From: Paracoccaceae bacterium
Lineage (GTDB): Bacteria; Pseudomonadota; Alphaproteobacteria; Rhodobacterales; Rhodobacteraceae
Length of the DNA: 59,639 nt
Assembly: GCA_047639325.1 (NCBI GenBank)
Contig: JBLINN010000001.1
Coordinates: forward strand, 1 to 59,639
Direction of reading: 5' to 3'
Made by a program: the position numbers and the translations under genes. This document shows positions 34,348 to 59,639 of this stretch, piece by piece (positions within the stretch are counted from its first letter, which is position 1; each line of letters begins with the position of its first letter). Under the pieces are notes generated by a model. It had not been told where the DNA came from and did no database searches. It saw only the letters and a program-made list of their open reading frames with translations.

Positions 34348-34350
34348 AAA

Positions 34351-44101: not shown

Positions 44102-44971
44102 TTATCCATCTGTTGCACAGCGAAACCCGACGAATTCCGCGTAAGTGTTTGTATAGTCACACATTCTGTTGCTTGCGACGGTCATGTGGGGCCGCCCATT
44201 CCAGCTGTTGCCCTTGATATAGGCGCAGGGTTCGCCGGGGATGCTTGCGTCAGCCTGGTCCGGAGGCAGGCATATTTCCGGCAGCACGCCCCCATTGGCC
44301 GCCGTAAGTTCCGTCAAAAGCGCGCGCATTTCAGGCGTTGCCTGTTGGTCCAGAACCACGTTGTCGCGGCAGACACCGGCGCGCGCGGTGCGGGTATCTG
44401 CCACCCATTCGGAAACATTGCCCGCCAGGCCGCGCACGCCGTAGGGGCTGATATCATCCGCGTGATCCGTCACCGGAACTGGACCCGTGCCGGTCAAATG
44501 GGCGCGGGTCAGGTCGGCGTCATCGCCCCAGGGGTAAATCCGCCCATCCGTGCCACGCGCCGCCTTTTCCCATTCGACTTCGGTCGGCAAGCGTTTGCCT
44601 GCCCAGGCGCAAAAGCTGGTGGCATCGTCATGCAGAACCCCGGTGACCGGCTGATCAGGGTGGTTGAATTCCGGGTCATCGGCAAAGGCCGCCGAGGTGT
44701 GGCCGGTGGCGGCCGTAAACTTGGCGTATTGCGCGTTTGTCACTTCGAACCGGTCAATGGAAAACCCAGCGACGCTGTAGGGCATCGGGCCATAAAGCCC
44801 AGTGTAAGAAACATATCCCAAAGTGGCCTGCCCGGCGGGGATTTTCACCATGTCGCCGTGGGCAGAGGGCCAAACCCCCAATGCCGCCGCCCCAAAGGCG
44901 ACAGCCCCGGCACCAGCCACAGCCACCGCCACCGCCACCGCCGCGGATATGGCGATCAGGCGAATAGCCAA
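44102..44971 (-). CDS. FGE-sulfatase (SUMF1/NirV-like) domain protein, membrane-anchored
   Basis: FSIDRFEVTNAQYAKF, LPTEVEWEKAARG, GNVSEWV, KGNSW...VGFRCA. The Ala/Val-rich anchor is encoded by a GCCACC-type repeat. TTG start is uncertain. Confidence 0.7.
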   Translation of the reverse strand: MAIRLIAISAAVAVAVAVAGAGAVAFGAAALGVWPSAHGDMVKIPAGQATLGYVSYTGLYGPMPYSVAGFSIDRFEVTNAQYAKFTAATGHTSAAFADDPEFNHPDQPVTGVLHDDATSFCAWAGKRLPTEVEWEKAARGTDGRIYPWGDDADLTRAHLTGTGPVPVTDHADDISPYGVRGLAGNVSEWVADTRTARAGVCRDNVVLDQQATPEMRALLTELTAANGGVLPEICLPPDQADASIPGEPCAYIKGNSWNGRPHMTVASNRMCDYTNTYAEFVGFRCATDG

Positions 44972-45086: not shown

Positions 45087-45827
45087 TTAGTAGGACAGGT
45101 CCTTGGTCACGGCGCCACCGGCATCGACGGTGATTTCACCGACCTCGACCTCGCCCAGGAACCCGTGCCACATCATCACTTCGTAGGTGCCCGCCGGGAT
45201 ACCATCGATCGAGAAACCGCCAGCCTCGTCCACCACCGAATAATAGGGGTTCTTGGCGACAAACACGAAGCTGTGCATGAAATCATGGGCGTCGCATTCG
45301 ACTTTCATGCCGTTGCCCCGGCGAAGTTTCACCTTTTTGGTGACCGTATCGCCCTTGCTGGGCTGCGATACATTCATCACCGTGCGACGCGCCTTGCCGA
45401 TCAGTTCGTAGGTATGGATGTTGTGCAGGGTCATGTCTGAATTATTCGCCGTCAGCTCGCCCCCATTGGCCATCACGCCCAAAACCGTCGAAAATTCACA
45501 GCCTTCCTGATCGATGGTCAGGTTCATTTGTTCCGCGTCAAAGGCCTTGCCTTCGCCAACCTCGTTCAGGAACACCACCGCGTTCATCAGCTTGCCGTCA
45601 CCGTTGATTTCCACAAACGGCACCTCGCGCGATCCCTCGCCGCAGATTTCCGGGTCTTTTGAAATGGTATAGCTGCGGGTGTCGGCCTCGGCAGCGCCGG
45701 CGGCCACGGTTCCGGCAAAGCTGCCACCATTGCTGACATCAACTTCTTTGTATCCCTTGGCGCTGGCCGTGGTGGCCAGACCAAGCAACGCCAGTGTCAT
45801 GGCGGATTTTGCAAGCGTATACTTCAT
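45087..45827 (-). CDS. Secreted cupredoxin-like protein with a C-terminal CarboxypepD_reg-like domain
   Basis: Signal peptide MKYTLAKSAMTLALLGLATTASA. Candidate type-1 Cu ligands are HNIH ... C-DA-H-DF-M, the amicyanin-type C-X2-H-X2-M spacing. C-terminal GGFSIDGIPAGTYEV. Confidence 0.5.
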   Translation of the reverse strand: MKYTLAKSAMTLALLGLATTASAKGYKEVDVSNGGSFAGTVAAGAAEADTRSYTISKDPEICGEGSREVPFVEINGDGKLMNAVVFLNEVGEGKAFDAEQMNLTIDQEGCEFSTVLGVMANGGELTANNSDMTLHNIHTYELIGKARRTVMNVSQPSKGDTVTKKVKLRRGNGMKVECDAHDFMHSFVFVAKNPYYSVVDEAGGFSIDGIPAGTYEVMMWHGFLGEVEVGEITVDAGGAVTKDLSY

Positions 45828-45854
45828 AGGATTTCCTTTCATTATGGGGGCCGT

Positions 45855-48065
45855 TCAGGCGACCAGCAGAGTTTGATCCGGCGTCTGCTCGGGGGCCTGC
45901 GTTTGAAAGATTTCAGCCAGCGCATCGATTGCCACCAACCACTGGTTCTTGCGGGCCTCGTCGTTTAGCAGGTCCAACAGCCGCGCAGCACCGGCATGTG
46001 GGGCGTATTCCCCCAGCAGCTTACCGATGTCGCGGCGATAGATACCGTCATTGCGCGCCGCAAATTCGACCAGCGCATCAACCCCGTCGTCACCACCAAG
46101 ACGCGCCAGCGCACGGGCGGCAGCGATGCCAGCCCCAAGGTAGCTGTCGTTCAGCGCACCGGTCAGCGCATCGCTGACCACATTACGCCGATCCAAGCTT
46201 CGGATCGCTTCGACCCGCACCAGCTGATCGTGATGACCGACAAGGGCGACCAGCAATTCGTCGATGGCGTCGCCGGGAAGAAAGCCAAACAGACGCGTCG
46301 CCAGCACCCGAATTTCCGAGTTTTCACTGTCCAGCAGACCCTTTGCCGTTTCAAACAGGCTGTCCGGCAAATGACCGCGTGAGTCGCCATGTTCGGCCAG
46401 CGAAAACAGCACTGCCTGCCGGGTTTCTTCGTCGATATCACTGTTCAGGGACGCGATCAGCGCCTCGGTAACCTCGTCCTGTACCACCTGCCCCAGCAAC
46501 CGCGCCGAAAACCGCTGAACATCCAGATACGGCGCCACTTCGGTGTCCCAGGACACTTTGCGCTTGGAAAACTTGCGGGTGTTGGTCATCGCCAGCAAGC
46601 GTTCCTGATCATCGTCCAAAATGATCTCTTGCAGCGGCGCTTTGGGTTGATCAGGCTCGTTGGCCATAATCGCGCGCAACGTCGATCCCGGCGCGGCATC
46701 TGCGGCCACCAATGGCAGGCTTTCATCAATCTCGCGGGCGATTTCCTCTAGCTCAGCCTGATCCGGCTCTGCTTTGGGCACCAGTTCGATCACCGGTTCA
46801 ACCTCTTCCACTTCTGGTTCTTCCGGCGGCAGCACCAATTCGCCTTTCAGCGCGATCAGCAGGCCGACACCCGCGTCATTTGGCCAGACGGGATCGTTTG
46901 CAGCGATATTGGCAAGGGTTGTCAGGCTGGACAGGCGCATTTGCCGGTTCGGGTCTGCGGCCACTTCCAACAAGGCGGGCACAGCGGTTTCCCCGGCTTT
47001 TTCAAGGGTTTCCAGCACGCCAATGCGGAATTCATGGGGGATTTTTGCGTTGCCCAGCACATGCATAAAACCTTTGGCAACCACCGGGCCTTTTAGGGCA
47101 AACAGCGCCAGCGCTGCGTGTCTGGCGGCAGTTGGGTCGCCCTTAACGGTGTTTTTCACCGCGTCCACCTGTTCCTTTTCCCGGAAAGTCTCGGGGTGGG
47201 CGGCGATGATTTTGAACACTTCGACGCGCACTTTGGGGTCCGCATCGGCAATCAGGTCGCGCAGAACCGGCAAGTGGGCCACCCCGTGATGGTGCACAGC
47301 AGCGGCGCGCACGACGGCGTCGGGGTCTTGAAACATCTCGACCAAACGCGCATCGTCAGACGCCAGGTTTTCCAGCGCAAGGGCGCGGATCGCGGCGGAT
47401 TTATCGGCCAGCATGTCGCCCAGCAGCGCGCTGAGATGCGGGTTATCCGACTGCCCCACGGCCCGGGCAACGCGCCGGACAAGGCGAGGATCGCCGCTTT
47501 CGTAAAAGACGCCCAGCGCCTGCGCCCCATCGTGGCCCATTTTGGCCAAAGCGCAAAACGCCGGTTCGCTAACATCCTGGCCCAATTCGTCGGCCATCGC
47601 GGTCAGAATTTCGGAAACCGCCTCTTCAACCTGAAAGTCGCCCAAAGCCTTGATCGAGGTCATCTGGATATCGTCCCAGGCGTCCCAACCATCGGTATAA
47701 AAGGCCTCTTCGTCCCAGGCGAATTGATCTTCTGAACGTGACACGGCCAAGGCGCGCAACAGCGGCACAACCGGTTGGTGGCGCATCGCCACAAGGGCCT
47801 TGATGGCCGCTTTCTTGACATCAGATTCCGGGTCGCCAACCAAGTTTTCCATCAGCTTGTCGGCTGTCTCTGGGTCCTGAATATCGGCCAGCGCCATCGC
47901 GGCATCGGTGCGCACATCCGGATCTTCATCCAGCAGCGCGGCGACCAGATCGCTGGTTGCTTTTGGCCCGCCGATGACCCCCAAAGCCCGGGCAGCCGCA
48001 CAGCGATGAACGTCTACCTCGCCCTTCAGGATTTCGCTAAGTCTTTCTGCTGATTTGATTTTCAT
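45855..48065 (-). CDS. Large HEAT-repeat (PBS-lyase-type) protein
   Basis: Repeated ...RxAAxALGxIGxxxAvxxLxxaLxDxDpxVRxxAaxAL... units throughout, with an acidic central linker. Start is ATG 48065 or GTG 48074. Confidence 0.8.
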   Translation of the reverse strand: MKIKSAERLSEILKGEVDVHRCAAARALGVIGGPKATSDLVAALLDEDPDVRTDAAMALADIQDPETADKLMENLVGDPESDVKKAAIKALVAMRHQPVVPLLRALAVSRSEDQFAWDEEAFYTDGWDAWDDIQMTSIKALGDFQVEEAVSEILTAMADELGQDVSEPAFCALAKMGHDGAQALGVFYESGDPRLVRRVARAVGQSDNPHLSALLGDMLADKSAAIRALALENLASDDARLVEMFQDPDAVVRAAAVHHHGVAHLPVLRDLIADADPKVRVEVFKIIAAHPETFREKEQVDAVKNTVKGDPTAARHAALALFALKGPVVAKGFMHVLGNAKIPHEFRIGVLETLEKAGETAVPALLEVAADPNRQMRLSSLTTLANIAANDPVWPNDAGVGLLIALKGELVLPPEEPEVEEVEPVIELVPKAEPDQAELEEIAREIDESLPLVAADAAPGSTLRAIMANEPDQPKAPLQEIILDDDQERLLAMTNTRKFSKRKVSWDTEVAPYLDVQRFSARLLGQVVQDEVTEALIASLNSDIDEETRQAVLFSLAEHGDSRGHLPDSLFETAKGLLDSENSEIRVLATRLFGFLPGDAIDELLVALVGHHDQLVRVEAIRSLDRRNVVSDALTGALNDSYLGAGIAAARALARLGGDDGVDALVEFAARNDGIYRRDIGKLLGEYAPHAGAARLLDLLNDEARKNQWLVAIDALAEIFQTQAPEQTPDQTLLVA

Positions 48066-48118
48066 CTGACTCACTCATGGTTTGATGCGCTAAACTATCA
48101 ACCCCGTCAGGCACGGCG

Positions 48119-48132
48119 TTGACCCAAGTCAA
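48119..48132 (-). promoter_or_regulatory. FNR/CRP-family (FnrL/Dnr-type) box upstream of the HEAT-repeat gene
   Basis: TTGACCCAAGTCAA is a perfect TTGAC-N4-GTCAA palindrome, centred about 60 nt upstream of ATG 48065. Confidence 0.55.
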
Positions 48133-48218: not shown

Positions 48219-50897
48219 TCAAATAACGATGTCGCGCGGTGCAAAGGACATCGACCGGAAGGTGTGCTTGTAAGGCGACTCACCAATCTTGGTGACCTTC
48301 GCGATACCCATCTTGAAGTTGTAGTTACCGCTGATCCAATCGACGACCCGTCCGGCCAAAGCGTTGGCAGGCTGGCTGGCATGCAAGAAGTCCATATACA
48401 TGACCCCCGGCTTAACCGCCCGCGTCACCATCGCCACCGCCGTTACCGCAGCTTCGCTAAGTTCGACGTTGCCGTTGGCCATCTGACCGGCGAACGAATA
48501 ATCCGATCCTTCGACCCCCAGCGTGGTGTCCTTCAACGAAGGCACGCGGTCATTGGACAGCAGGACCATATCGCCACTTTCGATACCGCGGGCTGCGGCA
48601 TCTTCGGTGTTGATCTCAACCCAGTTATCCGGCCAGCGCTGGACAATGTAGGGCCGCCGCGTGTCGTCGAAACCAGACTGCCAGCGTTCGTTGGCACGAC
48701 CGGACGTACACCACAGTTCGTCGCCTTTTGGCTTCATCCATTCCCAATAATCCGAGAACAGATCCCAAGGCGATTTCTGGATGTTGCACTTGCCGGTCTG
48801 CGAATTGAAATGCGTCAACTTCTTGTTGTACATGTTCAACGCAGTCGGCCCGCCTGGCATCAGCTTACGTGTGGTGTCATGCAGACGAACGGTGCCTTCC
48901 AGCGTTCCATCCGGGTGCATATAGACCGGGCCCTGAATACCGTTGGTTCCCATTTCGCGGAACTTCTGGTGCAGGGTCTTGCCCTCGCGATGCGCTGCCA
49001 CTTTGACCATGTTAAAGTCTTTGCGGCTGCCTCGGGTGAACTTGGCCAGTTCCTCGGCAACATCGTTAGAGTTTTCCCAATCAAAGCCCTCAAAGCCCAT
49101 CTTTTTGGCCAGCTGGGCAATGATCCACCAATCCGGTTTCGCTTCTCCCGGTGCATCGTAGAACTTTTGATACAGCCGGATACGACGTTCGCCGTTGGCC
49201 CGCAGGAAATCCTCTTCGCCCCAGGTTGCCGCCGGAAAGATGATGTCCGCAAACTGGTTGCCGATTGGATCGACCAGATAGATATCCTGGTTGACAACCA
49301 CCATGCCGCCACTATCAACCCGTGCTTTCAGGGTCTCAAGGATCTTTTCGCGGTTGATCGACTGGATCTGATGCGGGTTGCCACGGGTCAGTTCATGGAA
49401 CCGCTGCGACAATTGCTGAGATCCCAACATCGACTGGATCCAGGTGGTGCCGATGACATGTGCCATACGGGTGTGGCCCGCCATGGTCCAGGTATCCGTG
49501 TCCAGCGCCCGACGACGACGACCCGGCAGCTTCATCGGCGATTTGTTGCGCGGATAACCCCCGCCACGTACACCGCCACGCTGGTGACCACCCGCCCGGC
49601 CAATAACCTGACCAGGACGTCCGCCTGCGCCGACAGTGATCCCAAGTGCGGAAATCGCCTGGGTATTGCCGGTGTTGTTGGACCAATAGAAGCCTTTTTC
49701 GATCATGATCGAAGTTTTTGGCCGACTGCCATCATCTTTTGGCTTGGCCATCATCTCGGCTGCCAGCTGAATTTTCGCAGCATCCACGCCCGAAACTTCG
49801 GCCGCGGCTTCCAGCTTGAATTCATCCTGTGCCAGCAACCACTTGGACCAGTCTTCAAACCCTTTGGTCTGGAATTTGCCCCAGGTTGTCCGCCACTGCC
49901 AAGGGGTGTTCCGTGTGCCCTGACCAAAGCCCGAGGAAGACCCCCACTGGTCATTAACCCACTTTTCGATCCACTCTTTGTCCTGCCAGCCGTTCTCGAC
50001 GATGATCCGCGCAATGGCGTTGACCACCAACAGGTCTGTGCCGGGTGTCACGTCCAGCCACAGCCCGCCGTTCTGTTCGGCGTAAGCCACACCAGCGGTC
50101 TTGCGAGGCACCATAAAGATGGCCTTTTGACCATTCTGGATGCCCTTCATGATCCACTGCGTGAACAGGATCGTCTTGGTCTCGTAAGGGTCCGTGCCGC
50201 AGATCAACAGGGTTTCGGCGTTCATCCAGTCTTCGTAGGCCGGGCCGAAATTGTCGAACCCTGCATCCCGGAAACCGGGTGTCGAAGACACGTCAGACGG
50301 GGTGTCGTGGAAGGTGAAGTTTGCCGTGTTGATTGACCGCAAGGCGTATTTGGTGATCGCGTAGGTGTTCTCCATATACTGATAAGAGAACGTCTTGACG
50401 CCATAGGCATTGTGACCGTGCTTTTTGATCACGTATTTGCCGATTTCGGCGGCAATATCCAACGCAAAGTCCCATGGAACCGGTTGCAGGATGCCATAGA
50501 TACGCATCATCGGCGACTTCAGACGGTCCCGTGTCGGGGTTTCCGGATTATAGCACTTCTGCGCGATACAGCCGCCACGAAGCGAGCTGTCGCCGTCGGT
50601 ATTCACAAACTCGGTGTCTTTGTCGGGGATGATCACGACGTGGTGCGGCTCGCCTTCGTGCAGCACCACGTTGTGCTGGTTTGGGGCAACCCATGGGCCC
50701 AAAGGCGCCACCGGGAAATCTTCGCCAAATGCGTTTTCTTCGGCCTTCTGGCCACCGCGCTTGTCGCCTTTGACCGGCCAGCGATAGACTTTGTAACCAC
50801 AGGCAACGATGCAATAATCGCAGGCGGTGGTGATCACCTCGGCATCTGCCGGTGGCAGGGGCCCGTGTTGATCGGGGATGTAATACGGAGTTGACAT
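48219..50897 (-). CDS. Molybdopterin oxidoreductase large subunit, arsenite-oxidase/iodate-reductase (AioA/IdrA) family
   Basis: N-terminal 3Fe-4S motif TACDYCIVACGYKVYRW (C-X2-C-X3-C). Collinear with AioA as I recall it (PDK...SSLRGG, GGHQRG, NGERRIRLYQKF.D.PG, FDWEN). No own signal peptide. GGAGAGG Shine-Dalgarno. Confidence 0.88.
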   Translation of the reverse strand: MSTPYYIPDQHGPLPPADAEVITTACDYCIVACGYKVYRWPVKGDKRGGQKAEENAFGEDFPVAPLGPWVAPNQHNVVLHEGEPHHVVIIPDKDTEFVNTDGDSSLRGGCIAQKCYNPETPTRDRLKSPMMRIYGILQPVPWDFALDIAAEIGKYVIKKHGHNAYGVKTFSYQYMENTYAITKYALRSINTANFTFHDTPSDVSSTPGFRDAGFDNFGPAYEDWMNAETLLICGTDPYETKTILFTQWIMKGIQNGQKAIFMVPRKTAGVAYAEQNGGLWLDVTPGTDLLVVNAIARIIVENGWQDKEWIEKWVNDQWGSSSGFGQGTRNTPWQWRTTWGKFQTKGFEDWSKWLLAQDEFKLEAAAEVSGVDAAKIQLAAEMMAKPKDDGSRPKTSIMIEKGFYWSNNTGNTQAISALGITVGAGGRPGQVIGRAGGHQRGGVRGGGYPRNKSPMKLPGRRRRALDTDTWTMAGHTRMAHVIGTTWIQSMLGSQQLSQRFHELTRGNPHQIQSINREKILETLKARVDSGGMVVVNQDIYLVDPIGNQFADIIFPAATWGEEDFLRANGERRIRLYQKFYDAPGEAKPDWWIIAQLAKKMGFEGFDWENSNDVAEELAKFTRGSRKDFNMVKVAAHREGKTLHQKFREMGTNGIQGPVYMHPDGTLEGTVRLHDTTRKLMPGGPTALNMYNKKLTHFNSQTGKCNIQKSPWDLFSDYWEWMKPKGDELWCTSGRANERWQSGFDDTRRPYIVQRWPDNWVEINTEDAAARGIESGDMVLLSNDRVPSLKDTTLGVEGSDYSFAGQMANGNVELSEAAVTAVAMVTRAVKPGVMYMDFLHASQPANALAGRVVDWISGNYNFKMGIAKVTKIGESPYKHTFRSMSFAPRDIVI

Positions 50898-50909: not shown

Positions 50910-51491
50910 CTAACCTTGAAGGTTGTCGTGACGGCCGTAGATCAGCCCGAAAATTCCGGTGGCGTAGATATCGTCACCATCCAGTTCCAGCAGGATCTGC
51001 GGCAGGCTTTGATAGGCTTGCCCTGAAATCAGGATTCCGTGCCGTGTCAGGTCATATGTCGACAGGTGCAACGGGCAGGCGCCCAGGGATTTCGTGTCGG
51101 CCTTGTAGCTGTCAAACAACGTGCCACCCTGGTGGGTGCAGGCGTAATTGAACGCGACCACGTCCTGTTCCGGGCCGATGCCGCCACCGGCGCGAACGCC
51201 CATTTTGACGATCATGTTGTCGCTGTATTCGCCTTCGTCCGGGTAGTTGAAGTCAAACGGAACATCCGTTTTCAGATCGGACAGTTTGCCAATCAGCTTG
51301 CGCGGATATTCGGTGATTTGCGCCGGCACTTGCTTGGCCTGCGCCGTGCCCGGATCAAGGGTGATCATGATGGTCGTGGTGACCCCTGCCCCGATCAGGA
51401 ATTTACGGCGGGATACCAGGCACTTGTGCCCAACGGCCTTGGCGGCTTCCTTGCGGGTCATCCCCGTTTCGGCTTTTACATCTTGTGACAT
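50910..51491 (-). CDS. TAT-exported Rieske [2Fe-2S] small subunit (AioB/IdrB-like)
   Basis: Twin-arginine SRRKFLIGAG. Rieske boxes C-T-H-QGG and C-P-L-H. Start at ATG 51491 after AAGGA. Confidence 0.85.
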   Translation of the reverse strand: MSQDVKAETGMTRKEAAKAVGHKCLVSRRKFLIGAGVTTTIMITLDPGTAQAKQVPAQITEYPRKLIGKLSDLKTDVPFDFNYPDEGEYSDNMIVKMGVRAGGGIGPEQDVVAFNYACTHQGGTLFDSYKADTKSLGACPLHLSTYDLTRHGILISGQAYQSLPQILLELDGDDIYATGIFGLIYGRHDNLQG

Positions 51492-51511
51492 ATTTTTTCC
51501 TTTTCCAATGC

Positions 51512-52654
51512 TCACTCGGAAGCCATGGCTTCGTAGGGTGGCAAGACAGGCGGTTCGACTTCCAGTTCGTCACCCGAAAAGGCTTCGAGGAAGGCAACCA
51601 GTTGGCCCACTTCGTCGTCGTCCAAACCAAGCGGTTTGATCAGGTCGGATTTGGTTGATGACATGGTGCCGTCGGTAAAGTCGTTTTCACCGCCACCGGC
51701 GTTATAGAACTGAACCACTTCTTCGAGATCCCAGAACGCGCCATTGTGCATATACGGTGCCGTGTAGGCGGTATAGCGCAGGGGCGGGGTGCGGAATTTC
51801 CCCATGTGGTCCTTTTCCTTGGTGCGGAAATAAAGGCCCGGATCATCCTTCAGAACCCGGTACATTTCCTGGGTCACGCCCTTGGCAAAGATTTCATAGC
51901 GAAAGGTCACCTGCGCCAGTCCATCTTCTTCCCAACGCTCTGCGGGTGGCACGCCGATATTATAGTAATTCTCGTCCGTGGCCTGCGCGCCGTTGTGGCA
52001 CTGAATACAGCCCGCCTTGCCGTTAAACAGCTCCATCCCGGCGATCTGTTCTTCGGTCAGCGCGCTGGTCTCGCCGCCCAGATATTTATCAACCGGGGTG
52101 TCGTTGACGATCAGCGTGCGTTCAAACGCGGCAATCGCCGCCCATGCGTCGCCGATCAGCGGCCATTCGGTGCCGAACACATCGTTAAAGCGCGCCACGT
52201 ATTCCGGGATGAACGCCATCCGGGTTTCCATCACGTCGTTCTCGCCGTTCCCGGCAACCGCACCCTTGGCAGCAGACGGCGCCTGCTTTTCAAGCGAGGC
52301 AGCGGACCCGGCCCAAAACAACTGGCCCAGATAGGCCGAGTTGATCACCGACTGGCTGTTGCGCCAGTGAACGGTGCCCGGATAGCCGCGTGACAGGCTG
52401 TCGCCAAACCCCCAGCCCTGATCGGGCTCGTGGCAGGTGACACAGGCGGTCGATGCGTCGCCACCGATGCGCGGATCCCAGAACAGGATTTTGCCCAGTT
52501 CAACCTTGGCATCCGTCATCTTGTTATCCAGCGGAATGGGCGGATCGCCCAACGGGGCCAGGGCTGGATATTCCTGCGCCTGAGCCATCGCTGCCGAGGC
52601 GGCGATTGCCGCAACACCGGCCAGCAGAGTAAGTTTGTTTGTCATTGGTTTCAT
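51512..52654 (-). CDS. Di-haem cytochrome c peroxidase (CCP/MauG family), copy 2
   Basis: Signal peptide. CVTCH and CIQCH. FRTPPLRYTAYTAPYMHNG. Confidence 0.9.
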   Translation of the reverse strand: MKPMTNKLTLLAGVAAIAASAAMAQAQEYPALAPLGDPPIPLDNKMTDAKVELGKILFWDPRIGGDASTACVTCHEPDQGWGFGDSLSRGYPGTVHWRNSQSVINSAYLGQLFWAGSAASLEKQAPSAAKGAVAGNGENDVMETRMAFIPEYVARFNDVFGTEWPLIGDAWAAIAAFERTLIVNDTPVDKYLGGETSALTEEQIAGMELFNGKAGCIQCHNGAQATDENYYNIGVPPAERWEEDGLAQVTFRYEIFAKGVTQEMYRVLKDDPGLYFRTKEKDHMGKFRTPPLRYTAYTAPYMHNGAFWDLEEVVQFYNAGGGENDFTDGTMSSTKSDLIKPLGLDDDEVGQLVAFLEAFSGDELEVEPPVLPPYEAMASE

Positions 52655-52669: not shown

Positions 52670-53791
52670 CTAGTTCTGAACTTCGCGCCAGTTTTCGATG
52701 GTCGGATAGTTGGTTGAAATAGGATCGGGCCAGACGTGCTCAGGACCGGTCAACGGATCACCAGACAGCGCCTCAAGGAAGGCAACAATGTCTTTCTGTT
52801 CAACAAATGTCAGGCCAAGCGGCTTGATGCGTTCGTCTTTGTTAGCGTCATCGCCACCACCGGCGTTGTAAAAGGCCACAACCTCGAACAGCGAACCAAA
52901 CATGCCGTTGTGCATGTAGGGCGCGGTGTAAGACAGCTCGCGCAGGGTGGGCGTATTGAACGACCCAATGTCGGACCCATCTGCCGGATGGCGGATAATC
53001 TGCGCACCCACGTCGCGGCGGATGTTCATGTAATTCTCGATGCCCATGAACTGCGCAAAGGCCGCAAAAGTCATGTGGCGCATCGGGTCGGACCAGATGT
53101 CGGGGTTCTCTGGCGTGCCGATGTTATAGGCCTGATCGTCAGTCAGACGCCGGCCATTGTGGCACGAGATACACCCGGCTTTGCCTTCAAAAAGCTCCTG
53201 ACCGCGCTGTGCGCCGTCAGACATGGTGCCTACGTCAAAGGGCGCACCGCGCGATGTCAGCGTTGCCAGATATTCCGGGATCGCCTTGCGGATTGACCCG
53301 TTCGACGGCTCGCCATATCCGGCCTCTTCGAACATCTTCACATAAATAGGGTCTTGCTTGACGCGTTCTTGCATCAGGCGCATGTCCATGTTCATCAGGT
53401 AATCTTCGGTGATCATTTCGCGGGTCACGTCGTTCAGGTTCGTGCCCAGACGCCCGTCGTGCATCCAGTTGGCGGCCAGCGCGGTGTTGATCAGGGTTGG
53501 CGTGTTGCGGAACCCTTTGGAACCCGGGTAGGCCAGCGACAGCGCCAAACCATCGGAATAGCCGTTTTCCGGCTGGTGGCAGCTGGCGCAGGATATCGCC
53601 GCGTCGCCCGAAAGCCGCTGGTCAAAGAACAGGCGCTGTCCCAGCGCGGCCTTGGCCTGGTTGATTTCCGGTGCCACGATCGGCCCCAGCGGTACTGTGT
53701 CCGCAAAGACGGTTCCGGCCAGCAAGGTTGCCCCCATCAGCGAGGCCCCCAATGTCAGCGCAAATCCGCGTTTGGATCGAGATATCGTCAT
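52670..53791 (-). CDS. Di-haem cytochrome c peroxidase (CCP/MauG family), copy 1
   Basis: Signal peptide MTISRSKRGFALTLGASLMGATLLAGTVFA. CASCH and CISCH. FNTPTLRELSYTAPYMHNG. Start trimmed to ATG 53791 after AAGGGAA. Confidence 0.9.
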   Translation of the reverse strand: MTISRSKRGFALTLGASLMGATLLAGTVFADTVPLGPIVAPEINQAKAALGQRLFFDQRLSGDAAISCASCHQPENGYSDGLALSLAYPGSKGFRNTPTLINTALAANWMHDGRLGTNLNDVTREMITEDYLMNMDMRLMQERVKQDPIYVKMFEEAGYGEPSNGSIRKAIPEYLATLTSRGAPFDVGTMSDGAQRGQELFEGKAGCISCHNGRRLTDDQAYNIGTPENPDIWSDPMRHMTFAAFAQFMGIENYMNIRRDVGAQIIRHPADGSDIGSFNTPTLRELSYTAPYMHNGMFGSLFEVVAFYNAGGGDDANKDERIKPLGLTFVEQKDIVAFLEALSGDPLTGPEHVWPDPISTNYPTIENWREVQN

Positions 53792-53887
53792 TGATTTCCC
53801 TTTCTTGTTAAAAATGTCTCCGGCTCGGAAATCGCGAAACGGATTGGTGTCCTGCGGGCAAAGTCGCAACCCCACCCCCCAAATTCA

Positions 53888-53901
53888 TTGACGGGCGTCA
53901 A
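53888..53901 (-). promoter_or_regulatory. FNR/CRP-family box upstream of the peroxidase-Rieske-Mo unit
   Basis: TTGACGGGCGTCAA is a perfect TTGAC-N4-GTCAA palindrome, about 103 nt upstream of ATG 53791. Confidence 0.55.
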
Positions 53902-53956: not shown

Positions 53957-56233
53957 TCAGGCGGTGAACCGTCTGCGGGCACGCCAGCCGATCAGCAGAA
54001 AAACCAAACCCGCCAGCAATCCCGCCACAACCGCTGTTGCGATGGTTTTTGTCGGGTTCTCCACCGGCTCCAGCAGGATCCAGTACCAGGCGGTAAAGCT
54101 TTGGCGCAGGCCGATCTCGCCATTCAGCCCATCCCAATTGGCGAAAGCGATGGGGGTATAGACCCCTTCGTCAAATTGCAGATCCTGCGGCGTGCCAGTG
54201 TCCAGCGCGCGGGTAAACACCACCTGCCAGCGGCCATCTTTCCAAGTGCCTGTGGCCCTTAAATCTGAGCTGTCGGCGCGCGGCGTAGGCGCCTTTTCCT
54301 GCCCCTTGGCATCACTGATCACCACGGTTGCGGGCAGTTCCGGATCCTGCGAGGGCGCCGTCCAGTGCCAGATATTCACCGAGTTCTTGCGATCACCCTG
54401 GCGGAAATAGGGTTTCTCGGCCGTGCCAGTCAGCGCCGCCGGTATCTGCACCGCAATCGCGTCGCGTGTGGCGGTGACATCGTCCAGCGCATATTGCTGT
54501 TCCAGCGCGGATCCCGGCACCGAATAGGTGCGGTCATCCACATCAACGCGCAGCGCGATATCATCGGCATTATACAGCGCCCGCACCGTCACCATCTCGT
54601 TCAGGGAAAAGAACAACCGCGGTTCCTTGATAACGTTGGGCGACAGGCGGAAGGTCATCGCCGGGGCACCATCCCAGGCAGGATCATCGCCATCGCTGGG
54701 CAGATCGCCATCGACACGCACCGCGCGGATCACGCTGTCGCCCTTGCTAAGCGGCGTCGCATTATTGCGCAGGGTCATCACGTAATTCGCCACCGCCCAG
54801 CGGTCTTCCAGGCTCATATTGGTTGAATGTTCCGGCATCGGCGTGCTGGGAATCCCCGCTGACAGGCGCTGAAACACGTCCTTAGCGTCCACCGACCAGC
54901 GCCAAGTTTCAGGCTGGGTCAGGTTGCGCGGCCAGATGCGGTTTTCCCAATCATCCGCCAGCCGCTTGCCCGACATGATGTTGCCGCGCCCTGCATTGCC
55001 GTGGCATTCGCGGCAGGCCTTTTCGAATTGCACCCGACCATTGGCCAGCGCCGCATCGGTCACTTCGGGCGGGGTGCCCAATTCAATCGCCGTCAGGCCC
55101 AGATCTTCGGCGGTTTCTTCCTCCCAATATCCGAAGGTTTTGATCTTATAGATCAGCGCATCAATTTCAGCGTCACTCAGGATGGTTTTCCAGCCTGGCA
55201 TCGCGGTGCCCGGCAGCCCTTCGCGGATGGTTTCGCGCAGGTCGGCATCAGTGGGGAATTCGCTGTCGGAATCGGTGGTCTTGTATTTGAACAAACCCAG
55301 GGTGAAATCACGCGGCGCCGGATACATCCGCTCTGCCGCAATCCCCAGCCCGTCGCCGTCATCGCCGTGGCATTGCGAACAGCGCTTTGTATAGATCGCA
55401 TCAACCGCGCCTTCGTCCAGCGCAGCGCCTTCGGCAGCGGTGTCAGAACCCTCTTCCGCCCCGCCGGTGCTTTCCTCCAGCTCCCACGATCGCGGCTCAA
55501 ACCCGGTATAGTCATATAGGAACGAGATGATTTTCCACACCTCATGCTCTTGCAGCATATCCTCCCACACCGGCATCGCCGACGCCCAAGGCGTACCTTC
55601 CACCGGCAGGCCCGGGCCGCCTTTGGTAATACGCCAGAACAGGAACGCCTCTTGCAGCTGGGCGATGGTGCCCACGTCTTGAAAGTTGATCGGGCGCGGG
55701 GTGAACGCCCCGGCGAAATGCCCGGCCCCGTCCAGCAGGTCGCCGTGGCAGTAAACGCAGTTCTCGTAATACAGCCCCGCCCCCTCGGCGACGATCTCGC
55801 GGTATTCGTCCGAGGCTTCGTCAAATTCCGCGCGGAACGGGTTTTCCAGCGTCAAAAGGTTAAAGGTCTTGCCATAGGCCTTCAGACTGGAGGGCGGCGC
55901 TGGGTGGACGGTGCGCAATTCAGCAGGCGACACAATCGACGGCTTGACGATATCATAGGTCAGCGCGCCCACGCCGGCGACCGTGGCCACAAGGGCAACC
56001 GCGCGCAAGACCTTGCGCTGGGGCGAGCCGAACAGCGACACCAGCGGTGCAAAGAACCGCCCAGCAGTGGCATTGTCAAAGGTTACCACCAGCAAAACGC
56101 CGACGGTGCAGATGATCATGTACTGGATCAGCAAGGACGCGGGCAAAGGCGGGTTCAGGATGTGGGCGAACACCGCGTAAAGACCACCAAGAACCACCAG
56201 GGCCAGCGTCAGGGGATGTTTCAGGAATGCCAT
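53957..56233 (-). CDS. Membrane-anchored trihaem cytochrome c fused to an EB_dh/DOMON-like haem-binding domain
   Basis: About three N-terminal TM helices. CVYCH, CSQCH, CRECH. The C-terminal part (DDPAWDGAPAMTF...GTWKDGRWQVVFTRALDTG...PIAFANWDG...) resembles ethylbenzene-dehydrogenase gamma-type domains. Final TM anchor. Confidence 0.75.
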   Translation of the reverse strand: MAFLKHPLTLALVVLGGLYAVFAHILNPPLPASLLIQYMIICTVGVLLVVTFDNATAGRFFAPLVSLFGSPQRKVLRAVALVATVAGVGALTYDIVKPSIVSPAELRTVHPAPPSSLKAYGKTFNLLTLENPFRAEFDEASDEYREIVAEGAGLYYENCVYCHGDLLDGAGHFAGAFTPRPINFQDVGTIAQLQEAFLFWRITKGGPGLPVEGTPWASAMPVWEDMLQEHEVWKIISFLYDYTGFEPRSWELEESTGGAEEGSDTAAEGAALDEGAVDAIYTKRCSQCHGDDGDGLGIAAERMYPAPRDFTLGLFKYKTTDSDSEFPTDADLRETIREGLPGTAMPGWKTILSDAEIDALIYKIKTFGYWEEETAEDLGLTAIELGTPPEVTDAALANGRVQFEKACRECHGNAGRGNIMSGKRLADDWENRIWPRNLTQPETWRWSVDAKDVFQRLSAGIPSTPMPEHSTNMSLEDRWAVANYVMTLRNNATPLSKGDSVIRAVRVDGDLPSDGDDPAWDGAPAMTFRLSPNVIKEPRLFFSLNEMVTVRALYNADDIALRVDVDDRTYSVPGSALEQQYALDDVTATRDAIAVQIPAALTGTAEKPYFRQGDRKNSVNIWHWTAPSQDPELPATVVISDAKGQEKAPTPRADSSDLRATGTWKDGRWQVVFTRALDTGTPQDLQFDEGVYTPIAFANWDGLNGEIGLRQSFTAWYWILLEPVENPTKTIATAVVAGLLAGLVFLLIGWRARRRFTA

Positions 56234-56242
56234 AATCGTCCC

Positions 56243-57379
56243 CTATTCCGGCAGGTTCATCAGATAGTCGAGCAGCAGGGTCATTTCGCCCTCGGTCATG
56301 TCATCACCAAAATAGTCGGGCATCAGGTCGGCCTCGTAACCGTCGGCGATCTCGGCATTCGGGTCGATGATCGACGCCTTCAACGCCTCGCGGTTCATGC
56401 GCGCGCCAATACCGTTCAGCTTTGGCCCCATGTCGGCCTCGCTGCCTTGCAGATCATGGCACCCGGCACAGCCGTATTCGTCGATTACCCCGGCGGCGTC
56501 GGTGATCGGACCGCTGTCTTCAGGTTCTTTGCTGGGGTCCGGTTCCGGCAGGGTCAGCAAGTGATCAACGATCAGCAGCAATTCACTGGCGTGCATGTCC
56601 CCACCAAAGCTGTCGGGCATCAGGCCTTCGTCATAGCCGGCCGCGATCTCGGCATTTGGGTCCAGAATCGCCCCCATCAATTCACTGCGGCTCATCCGGT
56701 TGGCAATGCCCCCCAAAGCCGGGCCAAGATCGGCGCCGCTGTCGTTCAGATCGTGACAGGCAGCACAGGAAAACTTGTCCAGTGCGGCGATCACGTCGGT
56801 TTCCGGGGCCTCGATCATGCCATCACCGATGGCCGGGGCCGTATCCACCGGCGTGTCTTCGGCCGAGGGCAGCGGCACGGTTGGCCCCATCCCGGCGCGG
56901 TCCTGCAAAAAGGCGATGACAGCGTTGATTTCAACGGCGCTCAGTTCAATTGGCGCCGCATCCACCACCGGCATCGGGCTTACGCTGTCATTGGTGCCCT
57001 TTTTGCCAAACCCGGCGACCACATAGGCTGATGGGGCCTGCATCGACTCGCGCAGATAACCCTCGACCGCTTTTGGCCCTTCGCCCCCCGCCGCAACGCC
57101 GGAATACCCCGCATCGGCCAGCCGTTCGGGGAAGGTCGCGGCCAGGTCCATTTCCAGCGTATCAGGTGCGCGGCCCATACCATTGTGACACAGCGTACAA
57201 GTCCCCTTGCCGGAAAACAGCCCCTCGCCCAGGGTGATCATGCCCGCCATGTCCAGCCCTTCGGTCGAGACTTCGATAGGTTCGGACAGGTCCGGTTCAA
57301 CCTGTGGCAGGATATGCGCAAAAACCGCGTAGAACCCCAGCAGGACAAGGCTGAAAGTGATGACGCGCAGGAAGGTCAT
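56243..57379 (-). CDS. Membrane-anchored trihaem cytochrome c
   Basis: N-terminal TM. CTLCH, CAACH, CAGCH. Haem domains 2 and 3 are obvious internal duplicates. Confidence 0.8.
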   Translation of the reverse strand: MTFLRVITFSLVLLGFYAVFAHILPQVEPDLSEPIEVSTEGLDMAGMITLGEGLFSGKGTCTLCHNGMGRAPDTLEMDLAATFPERLADAGYSGVAAGGEGPKAVEGYLRESMQAPSAYVVAGFGKKGTNDSVSPMPVVDAAPIELSAVEINAVIAFLQDRAGMGPTVPLPSAEDTPVDTAPAIGDGMIEAPETDVIAALDKFSCAACHDLNDSGADLGPALGGIANRMSRSELMGAILDPNAEIAAGYDEGLMPDSFGGDMHASELLLIVDHLLTLPEPDPSKEPEDSGPITDAAGVIDEYGCAGCHDLQGSEADMGPKLNGIGARMNREALKASIIDPNAEIADGYEADLMPDYFGDDMTEGEMTLLLDYLMNLPE

Positions 57380-59130
57380 GATGACAGCTCCGCACCTTCT
57401 TGCTTGGTCTGGCCGAGGCGCGACAGCCAGAACACAAACACCATCACCGCCATAAAGGCCAAGGTGATACCGGTGATCGTATTGCCCGCATCCCCCAGCG
57501 TGGGGATGTAATTCTCGGGCGAATTATCCTTCATCACCGTGTAGACATGCCAGTTGGTGCGCAGGGACGACCGGATATAACCCATCAGCCCCATCAGCCA
57601 GGTAAACGCCACCGGCAGCACAAACAGCGCATATTGCGACCGCTCGGTCATACGGCCCCAATGCACCTTTTCCGACGTGGCCCCGCGCAGCATGAACACG
57701 TCAATAATCACCGACCCGATGATGATGCTTAGCGTGGTGATCACCTGCGGCACCGAGGCGCCGACTTTGTAAACCGTGGGTGTGATATAGCCGTAAATCC
57801 CGGCGCCCACGATATTGGCGATGCCCACGACATACAGCGCCACAACCACCATATTGGCGGATTTGGCCCACGACACCACGGGGATACGGGACGACCGGTA
57901 GAACATCTGGAACGACAGGAAGGTGAACACCAGCATCAGGTTCACAGCGGTATTCTTGGCCGGCATAATCCCCAACGGCCCAAGGATTTTATGATGCGTG
58001 CCGCCCAGGTTCTGGATCTCGGCGGTGGTCAGGATCAGCGTATGCGGCGTGACCCACACCAGAAACCCGGCAACAATCACCACAGCGATATATTTGACGT
58101 ATTTGGCATATTGCGCCCCGCGATCCGTGCGCATCAGGCCGGACCACAGATAGTAATTCGCGGCCAGCATAATCGTCCCGATCAGCACCGCCTGAATGAT
58201 GAACAACCACGCCAGAATGCCCCCCATGGCGGTGATGCCCATCTGCTGGCTATAGGCGTAAATCTCGGCCATCAGCCAGTATCCGGCAAAGGGCAACGGC
58301 AGGAACCCCAGAATGGCGATAAAGTTGGACGTATAACCCATCCAATCGTAATGCGCCTTTTTCGCAGGGTCCTTTTCCGCCAGGAACATATAGGCGGCAT
58401 AGCCCCCCACAATGGCCCCGCCATAGGCGATATTGGCCAAGAACCGGTGCAGATTCAGCGGGTTCCACAGCGGGTTGCGCGTCGCCTCCCACACGGTGCC
58501 GGTGATCGCCCCGTCGGGGGCAATCCCCGAGGGCGACATCATGAAGCTGGTCCAGGCATTGGCCACAAACATCAACGTCAGGCCAACGGTATTAAGCACA
58601 AGGCCAATTGACATGTGGTAATATTTGCGATTGCCCCGCCGCAGCGCGTCCCACGAATAAAAGTAGATATACAGCGTGACGCTTTCCAGCCCGAACAGCG
58701 CCGCATAGATCAGCATCTGACCACGGAACACCTTGATCAGATAGCCCATCAGATGCGGGTAAAACACCAGCAGCGTCAGCAACAGTCCCCCGCCCACAAG
58801 CGCGGTTAGCGAATAGGCGGCCATGGTGATCTTCATGAACTCCCGCGCCATCGTGTCAAACCGGTCATCGCCGGTCACCACGCTGATGAATTCGGTGGAT
58901 ATGGCGAACAGCGGCACCGCCAGCACAAAGGCCGCCAGAAACAGATGCATCTGCGCCATCGACCAGGCCAGGGTGCGGGCCGAGATGCCAGCAATCACCG
59001 GATAATCCATCCGCGACGGCTTGGGCGCGCCTTCCAGCGCGACGGCAGCGTCAGACGACGCGGCGGCCAGATCGGGCAGAACAAGGCTGGCGAATGCGGC
59101 GGTGATGGCGATCAGATGCGCGGTTTTCAT
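57376..59130 (-). CDS. Cytochrome bd-like protein (CydA superfamily, no Q-loop, no CydB partner)
   Basis: CydA-like blocks: AQMHLFLAAF (His19-like), LFGLESVTLY (Glu-like), FVANAWTSFMMSPSG (compare ANGWMQNP), LHRFLANIAYGGAIVGGYAAYMFLAEKD (His186 region). About 14 hydrophobic helices. ATGA overlap with the next gene. Confidence 0.7.
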   Translation of the reverse strand: MKTAHLIAITAAFASLVLPDLAAASSDAAVALEGAPKPSRMDYPVIAGISARTLAWSMAQMHLFLAAFVLAVPLFAISTEFISVVTGDDRFDTMAREFMKITMAAYSLTALVGGGLLLTLLVFYPHLMGYLIKVFRGQMLIYAALFGLESVTLYIYFYSWDALRRGNRKYYHMSIGLVLNTVGLTLMFVANAWTSFMMSPSGIAPDGAITGTVWEATRNPLWNPLNLHRFLANIAYGGAIVGGYAAYMFLAEKDPAKKAHYDWMGYTSNFIAILGFLPLPFAGYWLMAEIYAYSQQMGITAMGGILAWLFIIQAVLIGTIMLAANYYLWSGLMRTDRGAQYAKYVKYIAVVIVAGFLVWVTPHTLILTTAEIQNLGGTHHKILGPLGIMPAKNTAVNLMLVFTFLSFQMFYRSSRIPVVSWAKSANMVVVALYVVGIANIVGAGIYGYITPTVYKVGASVPQVITTLSIIIGSVIIDVFMLRGATSEKVHWGRMTERSQYALFVLPVAFTWLMGLMGYIRSSLRTNWHVYTVMKDNSPENYIPTLGDAGNTITGITLAFMAVMVFVFWLSRLGQTKQEGAELSS

Positions 59131-59139
59131 GTCACGCCC

Positions 59140-59268
59140 CTATTGCGGCATCAGATCAGCGCCGACAGGCAGACCCTGCGCTTGCATGATCGACTTATCC
59201 ATTAAGTAGAAAAACGCCGCCCAAACGACCAACGCCCCCACAAAAACCACCAAACTGCGTCCTGTCAT
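59140..59268 (-). CDS. Possible 42-aa single-TM peptide
   Basis: MTGRSLVVFVGALVVWAAFFYLMDKSIMQAQGLPVGADLMPQ. Its stop is 9 nt before the bd-like ATG. Below the ORF-track cutoff. Confidence 0.3.
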   Translation of the reverse strand: MTGRSLVVFVGALVVWAAFFYLMDKSIMQAQGLPVGADLMPQ

Positions 59269-59288
59269 CCTGCCGTCCCAGCCAATTT

Positions 59289-59411
59289 CTAGTGAACCGA
59301 GATCACGCCGTGATCAAAGATCAGCAACCACCAGAAGAAATAAATCATCGCGACCGCAGTCGCGGCGAAGACCAGCTTGCCAAGGGTTGTGCTTTGTTTG
59401 CCATCTGCCAT
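59289..59411 (-). CDS. Possible 40-aa single-TM peptide, first gene of the island
   Basis: MADGKQSTTLGKLVFAATAVAMIYFFWWLLIFDHGVISVH, preceded by GAGGCAGGG. Below the ORF-track cutoff. Confidence 0.3.
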   Translation of the reverse strand: MADGKQSTTLGKLVFAATAVAMIYFFWWLLIFDHGVISVH

Positions 59412-59474: not shown

Positions 59475-59488
59475 TTGACGGACGTCAA
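59475..59488 (-). promoter_or_regulatory. FNR/CRP-family box at the head of the island
   Basis: TTGACGGACGTCAA is a perfect TTGAC-N4-GTCAA palindrome, centred about 70 nt upstream of ATG 59411. Confidence 0.55.
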
Positions 59489-59531: not shown

Positions 59532-59639
59532 CTAAAACGCCACGCCACAGGCCTGAGAAATCTGCTGGCGAAGCCGGGCCATATAGGCATCCAATGCCTC
59601 GTCTTCTTGCTGGGGCACCAGAAAGATCAGCTTGGCGGC
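59532..59639 (-). CDS. 3' end of an unidentified CDS entering from the right edge
   Basis: Open minus-strand frame ...AAKLIFLVPQQEDEALDAYMARLRQQISQACGVAF ending at TAG 59532-59534. Not in the ORF track. Confidence 0.3.
   Translation of the reverse strand, partial: AAKLIFLVPQQEDEALDAYMARLRQQISQACGVAF

Follow-up and report, generated by a model that had tools for sequence, protein, structure and literature searches.

A 59,639-nt stretch of a Paracoccaceae genome (the window in what follows) contains, close to its right-hand end, a gene for a 584-aa protein related to the cytochrome bd subunit CydA, which is followed by two genes for membrane-anchored trihaem cytochromes c. Directly downstream of this three-gene module lie the genes of a molybdenum (Mo) enzyme and two peroxidases, which have the gene architecture of iodate reductase (idr) clusters and are probably of that type. 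By profile and fold, the 584-aa protein is a member of the cytochrome bd superfamily, and in its signature residues, its helix number and the content of its operon it matches the published OR-N2 subfamily. Our proposal, which we consider tentative, is that the module constitutes a terminal reductase that is fed by a cytochrome c or a cupredoxin and is induced at low oxygen, that its substrate would most likely be O2, and that it works beside the iodate reductase. An initial annotation of the same DNA had preferred a dedicated quinol:cytochrome c electron input and had named a sink function as the alternative, and the evidence leans to the latter. The genes of the module and the two small open reading frames (ORFs) that precede it are the following, evidence being given in brackets:

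59289..59411, reverse strand: small ORF 1, 40 aa, single hydrophobic helix with the motif FFWWLLIYxHG, candidate small subunit (conservation, ratio of nonsynonymous to synonymous substitution rates, dN/dS)
59140..59268, reverse strand: small ORF 2, 42 aa, single hydrophobic helix with the motif FYxxDxxIMxxQGLP, candidate small subunit (conservation, dN/dS)
57376..59130, reverse strand: CydA-like putative catalytic subunit of OR-N2 type, 584 aa, with a signal-like N-terminus, about 14 helices and no Q-loop (Pfam, alignment, AlphaFold model, Foldseek)
56243..57379, reverse strand: trihaem cytochrome c, 378 aa, membrane-anchored, CXXCH at 61, 205 and 304 (ATGA overlap with the preceding cydA-like gene)
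53957..56233, reverse strand: 758-aa protein with three N-terminal helices, three haem c domains, an EB_dh domain at 517-711 and a C-terminal helix (profiles, sequence)

The 584-aa protein matches the Pfam family Cyt_bd_oxida_I (PF01654) with 52.9 bits (cut-off 26.2), the match being confined to residues 52-305, and solved CydA chains are weak sequence matches (9r2g_A, E 2e-4; 5doq_A, E 7e-4); no NCBIfam model matched it. An AlphaFold model, calculated with 32 homologues as input (pLDDT 71, pTM 0.75), begins with a signal-like helix at the N-terminus, after which come 14 helices long enough to span the membrane; the pair 255-297 among them may be a single crossing, judging from the loop charges. 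At the place of the Q-loop there is only a loop of 22 residues (366-387). When this model was used for a Foldseek search, the top ten matches in the PDB were all CydA subunits with a probability of 1.00, and a structure of OR-N type was absent from the PDB in that search. In the alignment to solved CydA, H62 takes the position of E. coli H19, E149 that of E107 and H228 that of H186. The features that had been read from the letters alone, i.e. retained CydA haem-ligand neighbourhoods, about 14 helices, a short link instead of the Q-loop and a signal-like N-terminal extension, are thus all found again in alignment and model. The wider family is moderately large: clustering at 50% identity gives 891 clusters at E <= 1e-3 and 150 at E <= 1e-30.

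Murali et al. (2021) divided the bd superfamily into qOR, OR-C and OR-N, with OR-N being defined by the missing quinol site; every residue known to bind quinol in canonical CydA is absent in OR-N. Of the OR-N2 positions in their Table S6, G155, Y183, E190, Y197, Y199, H213, L227, H269, M430, N434 and S563 correspond at a constant offset of 41 to G114, Y142, E149, Y156, Y158, H172, L186, H228, M389, N393 and S522 of the window protein, and the reference residue H99 corresponds to H62 at an offset of 37, with a 4-residue indel. For comparison, relatives were collected in a scan of one genome per species, which yielded 80 loci from Alpha- and Gammaproteobacteria with a CydA-like protein of 61-96% identity. 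Ten of the eleven residues at offset 41, all but L186, are conserved in 78 homologues of this identity range, in which the haem ligand H62 is kept as well; L186 is nearly invariant in 32 homologous sequences. The equivalents of E. coli E107 and H126 are retained, that of E99 is a Tyr, and three more histidines (H260, H380, H528) are invariant among the homologues. The CydA-like protein itself has no CXXCH motif.

The operon also has the content that is published for OR-N2 operons, which is several cytochromes c and an EbdC homologue. No CydB partner is encoded alongside, as all other ORFs of the cluster fall in other families, and a second CydA-like gene was found neither in the window nor within 10 kb at any of the 80 loci. 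The initial annotation had stated that neither cydB nor cydX follows the gene, which is correct for the downstream side, but two conserved single-helix ORFs precede it. It had also described bd-superfamily members of this kind as catalogued and not characterised, and indeed papers from 2024 and 2025 still refer to OR-N as uncharacterised and regard it as a putative cytochrome-c-oxidising O2 reductase made of OR-N1 and OR-N2.

The motifs of both small ORFs are kept in nearly all related loci, in Alpha- as well as in Gammaproteobacteria. With a dN/dS of 0.06-0.17, small ORF 1 is under purifying selection, as is small ORF 2, and the annotation of Profundibacter amoris calls both as genes, small ORF 1 having 41 aa there. 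Coordinate 59411, at which the initial annotation let the operon end, is the ATG of small ORF 1. Over all genes of the module, dN/dS against five relatives ranges from 0.05 to 0.22, which shows purifying selection on every one of them.

The cydA-like gene and the gene of the 378-aa cytochrome share an ATGA stop/start overlap, as the initial annotation had described, and the 758-aa gene follows after a gap of 10 nt. Both cytochromes carry the three CXXCH motifs and the membrane anchors that had been described for them; in the 758-aa protein the motifs are at 159, 285 and 407, and the three N-terminal helices are hydrophobic. An NCBIfam search indicated a resemblance to CcoP in part of the 758-aa protein, and a haem c domain is weakly similar to the monohaem subunit of alternative complex III (ACIII; 6f0k_E, E 8e-4). 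The shared YAVFAHIL start helix of both cytochromes was considered as a source of a membrane haem ligand and rejected, because its His varies (H/Y/F/N/Q) among 73 homologues of each.

The EB_dh domain (PF09459) of the 758-aa protein is recognised with 76.3 bits (cut-off 33.3) and aligns with 2ivf_C and 7b04_C. The axial haem b ligands of EbdC, which we take to be Met108 and Lys201 (2IVF numbering), align to Q612 and Q711, and the haem b ligand positions are thus lost. Three transmembrane helices, the EB_dh domain and the C-terminal anchor had been assigned correctly in the beginning, but the haem b that had been assumed with them does not agree with these two glutamines. In 49 of 61 homologues of the 758-aa protein both positions are His/His, while Q/Q, Q/N or L/Q is found in 12 homologues that form one Rhodobacteraceae subclade (L002-L014 and L028 in our locus numbering), plus the window. 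The clean co-variation of the two positions points to a haem with bis-His coordination in most members, while the window clade probably carries no haem b. A cofactor site seems to have been lost here recently and in a coordinated manner, in a domain that is still constrained (dN/dS 0.06-0.18).

Downstream of the module, the following genes are found:

52670..53875, reverse strand: dihaem cytochrome c peroxidase in IdrP2 position, probable start 53794, 374 aa (CCP_MauG 1.9e-36, gene order)
51512..52654, reverse strand: dihaem cytochrome c peroxidase in IdrP1 position (Pfam)
50910..51515, reverse strand: AioB-like Rieske subunit with the twin-arginine motif SRRKFL, IdrB position (TIGR02694, 118 bits, cut-off 95.65)
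48219..50897, reverse strand: AioA-like molybdopterin subunit with a 3Fe-4S (Rieske_3) domain, IdrA position (Pfam, NCBIfam)

The Mo enzyme and the two peroxidases thus have the gene order idrP2-P1-B-A. In the literature Idr is told apart from Aio by this order with its two peroxidases, and on this synteny criterion we provisionally assign the Mo enzyme to Idr. The Mo subunit also scores 429 bits with the NCBIfam arsenite-oxidase model (cut-off 359). The IdrA of Roseovarius azorensis was not found among the protein clusters inspected for the window Mo subunit. Close homologues from Ruegeria, Roseibium, Pseudovibrio and Roseovarius that lie in idrP2-P1-B-A clusters are annotated as 'arsenate reductase (azurin) large subunit', which for IdrA-like proteins is probably a systematic misnaming. 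The initial annotation had named a periplasmic Mo enzyme and two peroxidases here, but had not recognised the likeness to iodate reductases. Other idr-bearing Rhodobacteraceae and relatives do reduce iodate (Kine et al. 2024), and in a Roseovarius IdrA has been identified in an iodate-reducing activity band.

For 53 of the loci, the flanking DNA suffices to count the linkage to idr. In 46 of them idrP2-P1-B-A lies directly downstream of the three-gene module, and in two more (L032 and L039) idr is convergent and just past the flank, which brings the total to 48 of 53; at the other five, no idr is present in the flanking DNA examined. This linkage has outlasted several rearrangements, at 61-96% identity and in two classes, which argues for selection on the association itself. 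The tie to the downstream Mo enzyme and peroxidases that the initial annotation had suspected is strongly supported by this synteny together with the shared FNR-type boxes described below.

At the same time, the linkage of module and idr is facultative in both directions. Cultured strains of Roseovarius, Roseibium and Pseudovibrio have idr with the gene of a HEAT-repeat protein and without the bd-like module, and therefore the module is not required for Idr as such. Conversely, in one locus at 43% identity (L090, 3376-12738) the module and a cupredoxin are present and idr is absent, from which it follows that the module is self-sufficient. Next to the OR-N2-like gene of that locus are five cytochrome c genes, of which one has EB_dh and another is FixO-like, together with two 43-aa ORFs and the genes of a p251-like and a NosD-like protein. 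In a Nitrospira-type locus at 42% identity (L086, 3953-12899), a second CydA-like gene, a Rieske protein and a cytochrome b are encoded beside the OR-N2-like gene, so that OR-N2 is not needed there for quinol oxidation.

Upstream of the small ORFs and at the promoters of the cluster, four further features can be listed:

59535..59639, reverse strand: 'orf100', a conserved ORF of about 100 aa with an N-terminal helix, of which the last 35 codons are in the window and the rest is cut by its end (tblastn)
59475..59488: FNR/FixK-type palindrome TTGACGGACGTCAA, 64 nt upstream of small ORF 1
53888..53901: FNR/FixK-type palindrome TTGACGGGCGTCAA, about 94 nt upstream of the probable idrP2 ATG (53794)
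48119..48132: FNR/FixK-type palindrome TTGACCCAAGTCAA, between idrA and the HEAT gene, upstream of the latter

The orf100 of P. amoris (L091, 9272-9574) is 71% identical to the window over 35 aa in tblastn. In most alphaproteobacterial loci this ORF lies ahead of the small ORFs, and in some others it has a different place in the cluster. The palindrome TTGAC-N4-GTCAA, which we take to fit the consensus of the FNR/FixK family, has three matches in the 59.6 kb at 0.03 expected, all of them within this cluster and in front of its three units. The position of TTGACGGACGTCAA is occupied by a box in 30 related loci. With the relaxed pattern TTGA[CT]-N4-[AG]TCAA the same three promoter positions are found in the Alpha loci (67 of 95 matches), while the boxes are mostly missing in the Gamma loci. 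Crp/FNR regulators adjoin the cluster in relatives. Boxes of this type at all three units lead us to propose that the module is switched on at low oxygen together with the iodate reductase. Such a putative FNR-type regulation agrees with Roseovarius azorensis, where idr is expressed under static, oxygen-limited conditions with iodate and induced cells reduce iodate anaerobically only. Scans for sigma-70 promoters and intrinsic terminators between 39.7 and 59.6 kb gave counts at chance level.

On the other side of idrA, a set of genes follows of which most accompany the module:

45855..48074, reverse strand: HEAT/PBS-lyase-repeat protein, 739 aa, cytoplasmic (Pfam; conserved after idrA)
45087..45842, reverse strand: putative periplasmic blue-copper (cupredoxin) protein, 251 aa, with a C-terminal beta-sandwich (residues, fold search)
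44102..44971, reverse strand: FGE-sulfatase-family protein, not generally conserved in the cluster (family search)
42446..44095, reverse strand: protein with Usp and PCP_red (tetrapyrrole-binding-type) domains (profiles)
41163..42449, reverse strand: radical SAM/SPASM enzyme, AhbD/NirJ2-like, fused to a PCP_red domain (TIGR04055, 6e-89; TIGR04545, 8e-85)
39766..41166, reverse strand: HemY-family flavoprotein of the protoporphyrinogen/coproporphyrinogen oxidase type (TIGR00562, 259 bits, cut-off 97.85)

The genes of the HEAT, cupredoxin, Usp-PCP_red, AhbD-like and HemY-like proteins adjoin the module wherever the flanking DNA suffices, after idrA in the Alpha loci and divergently upstream in the Gamma loci, and they are also present in loci where no idr is visible (L042, L044 and L063; the other neighbours in L042 and L063 are unrelated genes). 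The HEAT gene follows idrA also where the bd-like module is absent (L081-L083, cultured strains) and thus appears to be linked not to the module alone but also to idr; its product may be a cytoplasmic maturation factor. In the 251-aa protein, H140/H143, C183, H186 and M189 are invariant with the amicyanin-like spacing His...Cys-X2-His-X2-Met, and Foldseek matched its model (pLDDT 84) to auracyanin, amicyanin and pseudoazurin with a probability of 1.00. From these invariant copper-ligand residues and fold matches, the protein is best read as a periplasmic type 1 copper cupredoxin, whereas sequence profiles (Pfam and a PDB profile search) detected only the C-terminal beta-sandwich and not the cupredoxin fold. 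Both NCBIfam scores of the radical SAM protein are below the cut-off, the nearest families being NirJ2 and the haem b synthase AhbD. The FGE-like gene, whose family presumably includes NirV, has a homologue in one other locus only (L042, 39%) and therefore stands outside the conserved set.

Several Gamma loci have a gene for a SCO1/SenC copper chaperone between the cytochrome c-EB_dh gene and idrP2 (L056, 14982-15608; L080, 15970-16575; also L064, L070, L071, L076 and L077). In L080 an RNA-methyltransferase-like gene is additionally located at this insertion place. A ferrochelatase and a Crp/FNR-family regulator are encoded divergently upstream in P. amoris (L091, 7294-9049) and in about 15 other Rhodobacteraceae loci. 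Together with the HemY-like oxidase and the AhbD-like enzyme, this ferrochelatase could provide a coproporphyrin-type route to haem, or a modified haem. In the literature, no paper was found that links bd-like oxidases with radical SAM/cupredoxin gene sets.

The end of the cluster is abutted by genes for an OmpR-type response regulator (36642-37403, reverse strand) and a hybrid PAS histidine kinase (37306-39756, forward strand). The pair has 41% and 42.5% identity (kinase E 1.5e-162) to a corresponding pair in Roseovarius sp. 2305UL8-3 (L081) whose genes immediately precede idrP2, and because of this similarity it is a candidate iodate- or redox-sensing system for idr. The flagellar genes at 30566-36455 on the forward strand (MotB-like, FlgE, FlgK, flagellin-like, FlgI), upstream of this two-component pair, are unrelated to the module.

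From the architecture, conservation, synteny and shared operator motif that are observed in this cluster, we infer the subunit composition of the complex, its substrate and the direction of electron flow. The complex would consist of the 584-aa OR-N2 subunit, the two single-helix proteins of about 40 aa and the two membrane-anchored trihaem cytochromes c. Its electron donor would be a cytochrome c or a cupredoxin and not quinol; electrons would enter via periplasmic haems c, be passed to a b558-type haem (H228 together with M389 or H380), and move on to a high-spin haem with H62 as ligand, at which a small oxidant would be reduced, with O2 being the likeliest one and H2O2 possibly another. The protons would come from the cytoplasm via the retained Y142/E149/H172 path. 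Genetically, the system would be a regulon of about 20 kb with three units, namely the bd-like operon, idrP2-P1-B-A and the maturation set (HEAT, blue-copper, Usp-PCP_red, AhbD-like, HemY-like), in relatives with the ferrochelatase and the Crp/FNR regulator nearby. The module could then be the oxygen-handling, energy-conserving arm of a periplasmic electron hub that serves IdrAB for iodate and IdrP1/P2 for peroxide, and O2 reductase and idr would share a single set of haem c and copper carriers in the periplasm. Next to idr, such a module would lower the O2 that inhibits iodate reduction, and it would conserve energy from residual O2, or from O2 that is generated if the Pseudomonas SCT model holds, a model of iodate respiration that invokes a terminal oxygen reductase.

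What points to a terminal reductase is that the ligands of the active site and of the b558-type haem as well as the proton path are kept while the quinol-site features are gone, and that the haems of the bd fold, as in established bd structures, are near the periplasmic face. Membrane-anchored cytochrome c partners, one of them partly CcoP-like, and the copper and haem maturation genes that travel with the module suggest the same, as do the separate Rieske/cytochrome b genes in L086, the occurrence of the module without idr in L090, and the fact that OR-N is the only oxidase in some Nitrospirales. There are nevertheless several points that weigh against this proposal. The Glu ligand of haem b595 (E445) has no counterpart, S522 being at this position as in the OR-N2 reference, the M393 equivalence was assigned by alignment alone, and the confidence of the structural model is moderate. 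No OR-N enzyme has been purified or assayed. The strict anaerobe Kuenenia has a bd-like gene in the cluster of its nitrite oxidoreductase (NXR), for which a quinone-related role like that of ACIII was considered (Lucker et al. 2013). The idr islands of the iodate literature, four genes with poorly conserved flanks, are stated to be without a quinone oxidoreductase, and the cultured strains with idr and HEAT manage without the bd-like module.

Some of these points would be better accommodated if the module were a dedicated quinol:cytochrome c input, in which the CydA-like protein would oxidise quinol at a site that replaces the Q-loop, and electrons would flow via the trihaem cytochromes, possibly with the cupredoxin, both to IdrB/IdrA and to the peroxidases, on a route that would circumvent or complement the bc1 complex. 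The module could in this way supply the quinone oxidoreductase that idr clusters lack, and the tight synteny, the operators in common with idr, the role proposed in Kuenenia and the weak similarity of a haem c domain to ACIII would all fit. The HYDWMGY motif (260-266), strongly conserved near a predicted cytoplasmic helix end, could be a quinone site. On the other hand, the canonical quinol-binding residues of CydA are all missing in OR-N, haems at the periplasmic face, to judge from bd structures, would make the bd fold a poor scaffold for a quinol dehydrogenase, and the proton-path residues are kept. A bc-type module is co-encoded with OR-N2 in L086, and haem-modifying and copper genes are unexpected for a simple electron relay. 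We regard quinol input as the main rival, possible but rather unlikely. It is improbable that idr and the module are merely co-located without direct electron coupling, as two low-oxygen respiratory modules under a common regulator in a mobile region: idr is horizontally mobile with variable flanks, each partner occurs without the other, and the arrangement varies among Alpha, Gamma and convergent loci, but a linkage of 48 in 53 loci that survives rearrangements in two classes speaks against it.

Other explanations concern the substrate. The module might reduce a reactive product of iodate reduction other than O2, such as HIO, iodite or peroxide, and thereby complete the six-electron reduction, its haem site carrying a custom tetrapyrrole that the HemY-like oxidase, the ferrochelatase and the AhbD-like enzyme of the cluster would synthesise. 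The fate of HIO and H2O2 differs between the two published iodate models, and cld is missing from nearly all idr genomes; module and haem-modifying genes are tightly linked to idr, and the pentacoordinate haem site on H62 is kept. However, a relative at 43% identity has module and cupredoxin but no idr, and nitrifier-type clusters have the module as well, so that its ancestral substrate was not an iodine species; two peroxidases already deal with H2O2, and there is no chemical precedent. We consider this reading very unlikely. A broader variant, also quite improbable, would make the OR-N2 complex the missing enzymatic step of Idr iodate reduction, that is a membrane haem (perhaps haem-copper) reductase with a custom tetrapyrrole which consumes HIO, O2 or peroxide released by IdrAB and conserves energy, and the extended cluster the complete pathway in marine Alpha- and Gammaproteobacteria. 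Highly unlikely, finally, is a reverse flow in a self-contained chain, of the kind proposed for NXR and the bd-like protein in nitrite oxidisers, in which an AioA-like oxidase of a periplasmic substrate would pass electrons via the cytochromes to the bd-like oxidase and on to O2. The nearest enzyme that has been characterised, AioAB, operates in this direction, the arsenite-oxidase models of NCBIfam pass their cut-offs, and the NXR clusters offer an analogy, but P2-P1-B-A with two peroxidases distinguishes Idr from Aio, IdrA was found in the iodate-reducing band of a Roseovarius, and an oxidation of iodide to iodate with O2 would yield little energy.

How does the terminal reductase proposed here compare to known systems? 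With the NIDE0901-like OR-N2 of Nitrospira (Murali et al. 2021), the window protein shares the signature residues, about 14 helices, the lack of a Q-loop and the cytochromes c and EbdC as neighbours. In contrast to that system, the window module is proteobacterial, has neither an OR-N1 partner nor Rieske/cytochrome b genes, is embedded in an iodate-reductase-type cluster and has lost the EB_dh His/His pair of most members, and neither the two small ORFs nor the haem/copper maturation set are described in the papers examined. The canonical CydAB(X) enzymes of E. coli, Geobacillus and Mycobacterium have the CydA fold with the aligned equivalents of H19, E107 and H186 in common with it, and small single-helix subunits (CydX/CydS) occur in canonical bd enzymes, too. 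The window protein differs from them in that it lacks Q-loop, quinol-binding residues and CydB, has five helices more, starts with a signal-like sequence, is partnered by cytochromes c, and is similar at E ~1e-4 only.

The gene sets at the NXR clusters of Nitrospina, Nitrospira and Kuenenia (Lucker et al. 2013) likewise combine a 14-helix bd-like protein, cytochromes c, cupredoxin-like proteins and alt-NxrC-type proteins, the latter with 1-3 haem c sites and a DMSO-reductase-type haem b domain, with a periplasmic high-potential Mo enzyme. The Mo enzyme of the window is of AioAB/IdrAB type (Rieske plus 3Fe-4S) and not a type II NXR, two peroxidases are added, and the hosts are heterotrophic or sulfur-oxidising Proteobacteria. 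The idrABP1P2 island (Yamazaki et al. 2020; Reyes-Umana et al. 2021) shares with the window the P2-P1-B-A order, AioA- and AioB-like subunits, an IdrB with a Tat motif and peroxidases whose N-termini are of Sec type, but as published it consists of four genes, whereas idr of the window lies inside a conserved cluster of about 20 kb. A functional analogy only exists to cbb3 oxidases (CcoNOQP), in which membrane-anchored cytochromes c also feed a catalytic subunit and FNR/FixK-type control is found; these oxidases need SenC/Sco-type copper chaperones, as which the SCO1 of the Gamma loci may be compared. Their catalytic fold is unrelated.

The protein architecture of OR-N2 is already published. 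Not found in the papers examined are the embedding in idr clusters across two proteobacterial classes, the two candidates for small subunits, the loss of the EB_dh ligands, the constant blue-copper and haem-modifying companions and the common FNR-type operators. We found no paper that combines idrA, iodate and cytochrome bd, and a review on idr and a paper on Methylomirabilis do not mention bd-like or other accessory genes beside idr.

OR-N 'bd-like oxidases' were proposed as terminal oxidases of nitrite oxidisers and have been an open problem since. Their hosts are slow-growing nitrifiers or uncultured, which is part of the reason why no member has been purified. With a close relative in heterotrophic Rhodobacteraceae, including the cultured P. 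amoris, whose complete genome CP032125.1 carries the cluster at about 317-330 kb, substrate, subunits and cofactors become accessible to ordinary genetics and biochemistry, and the adjoining pathway offers an easy read-out, the conversion of iodate to iodide. From the conservation of AhbD-like, HemY-like and Usp-PCP_red proteins, the OR-N2 family may have a haem supply of its own or use a modified haem. If our proposal is correct, many marine idr loci would not be four-gene islands that are fed by the housekeeping bc1 complex only, but clusters of about 20 kb, probably regulated by low oxygen, that include their own membrane complex, a blue-copper protein and haem-maturation genes. Such a picture would be relevant to the restriction of iodate reduction to oxygen-poor conditions in 'aerobic' marine bacteria, and to the use of idrA alone as marker gene.

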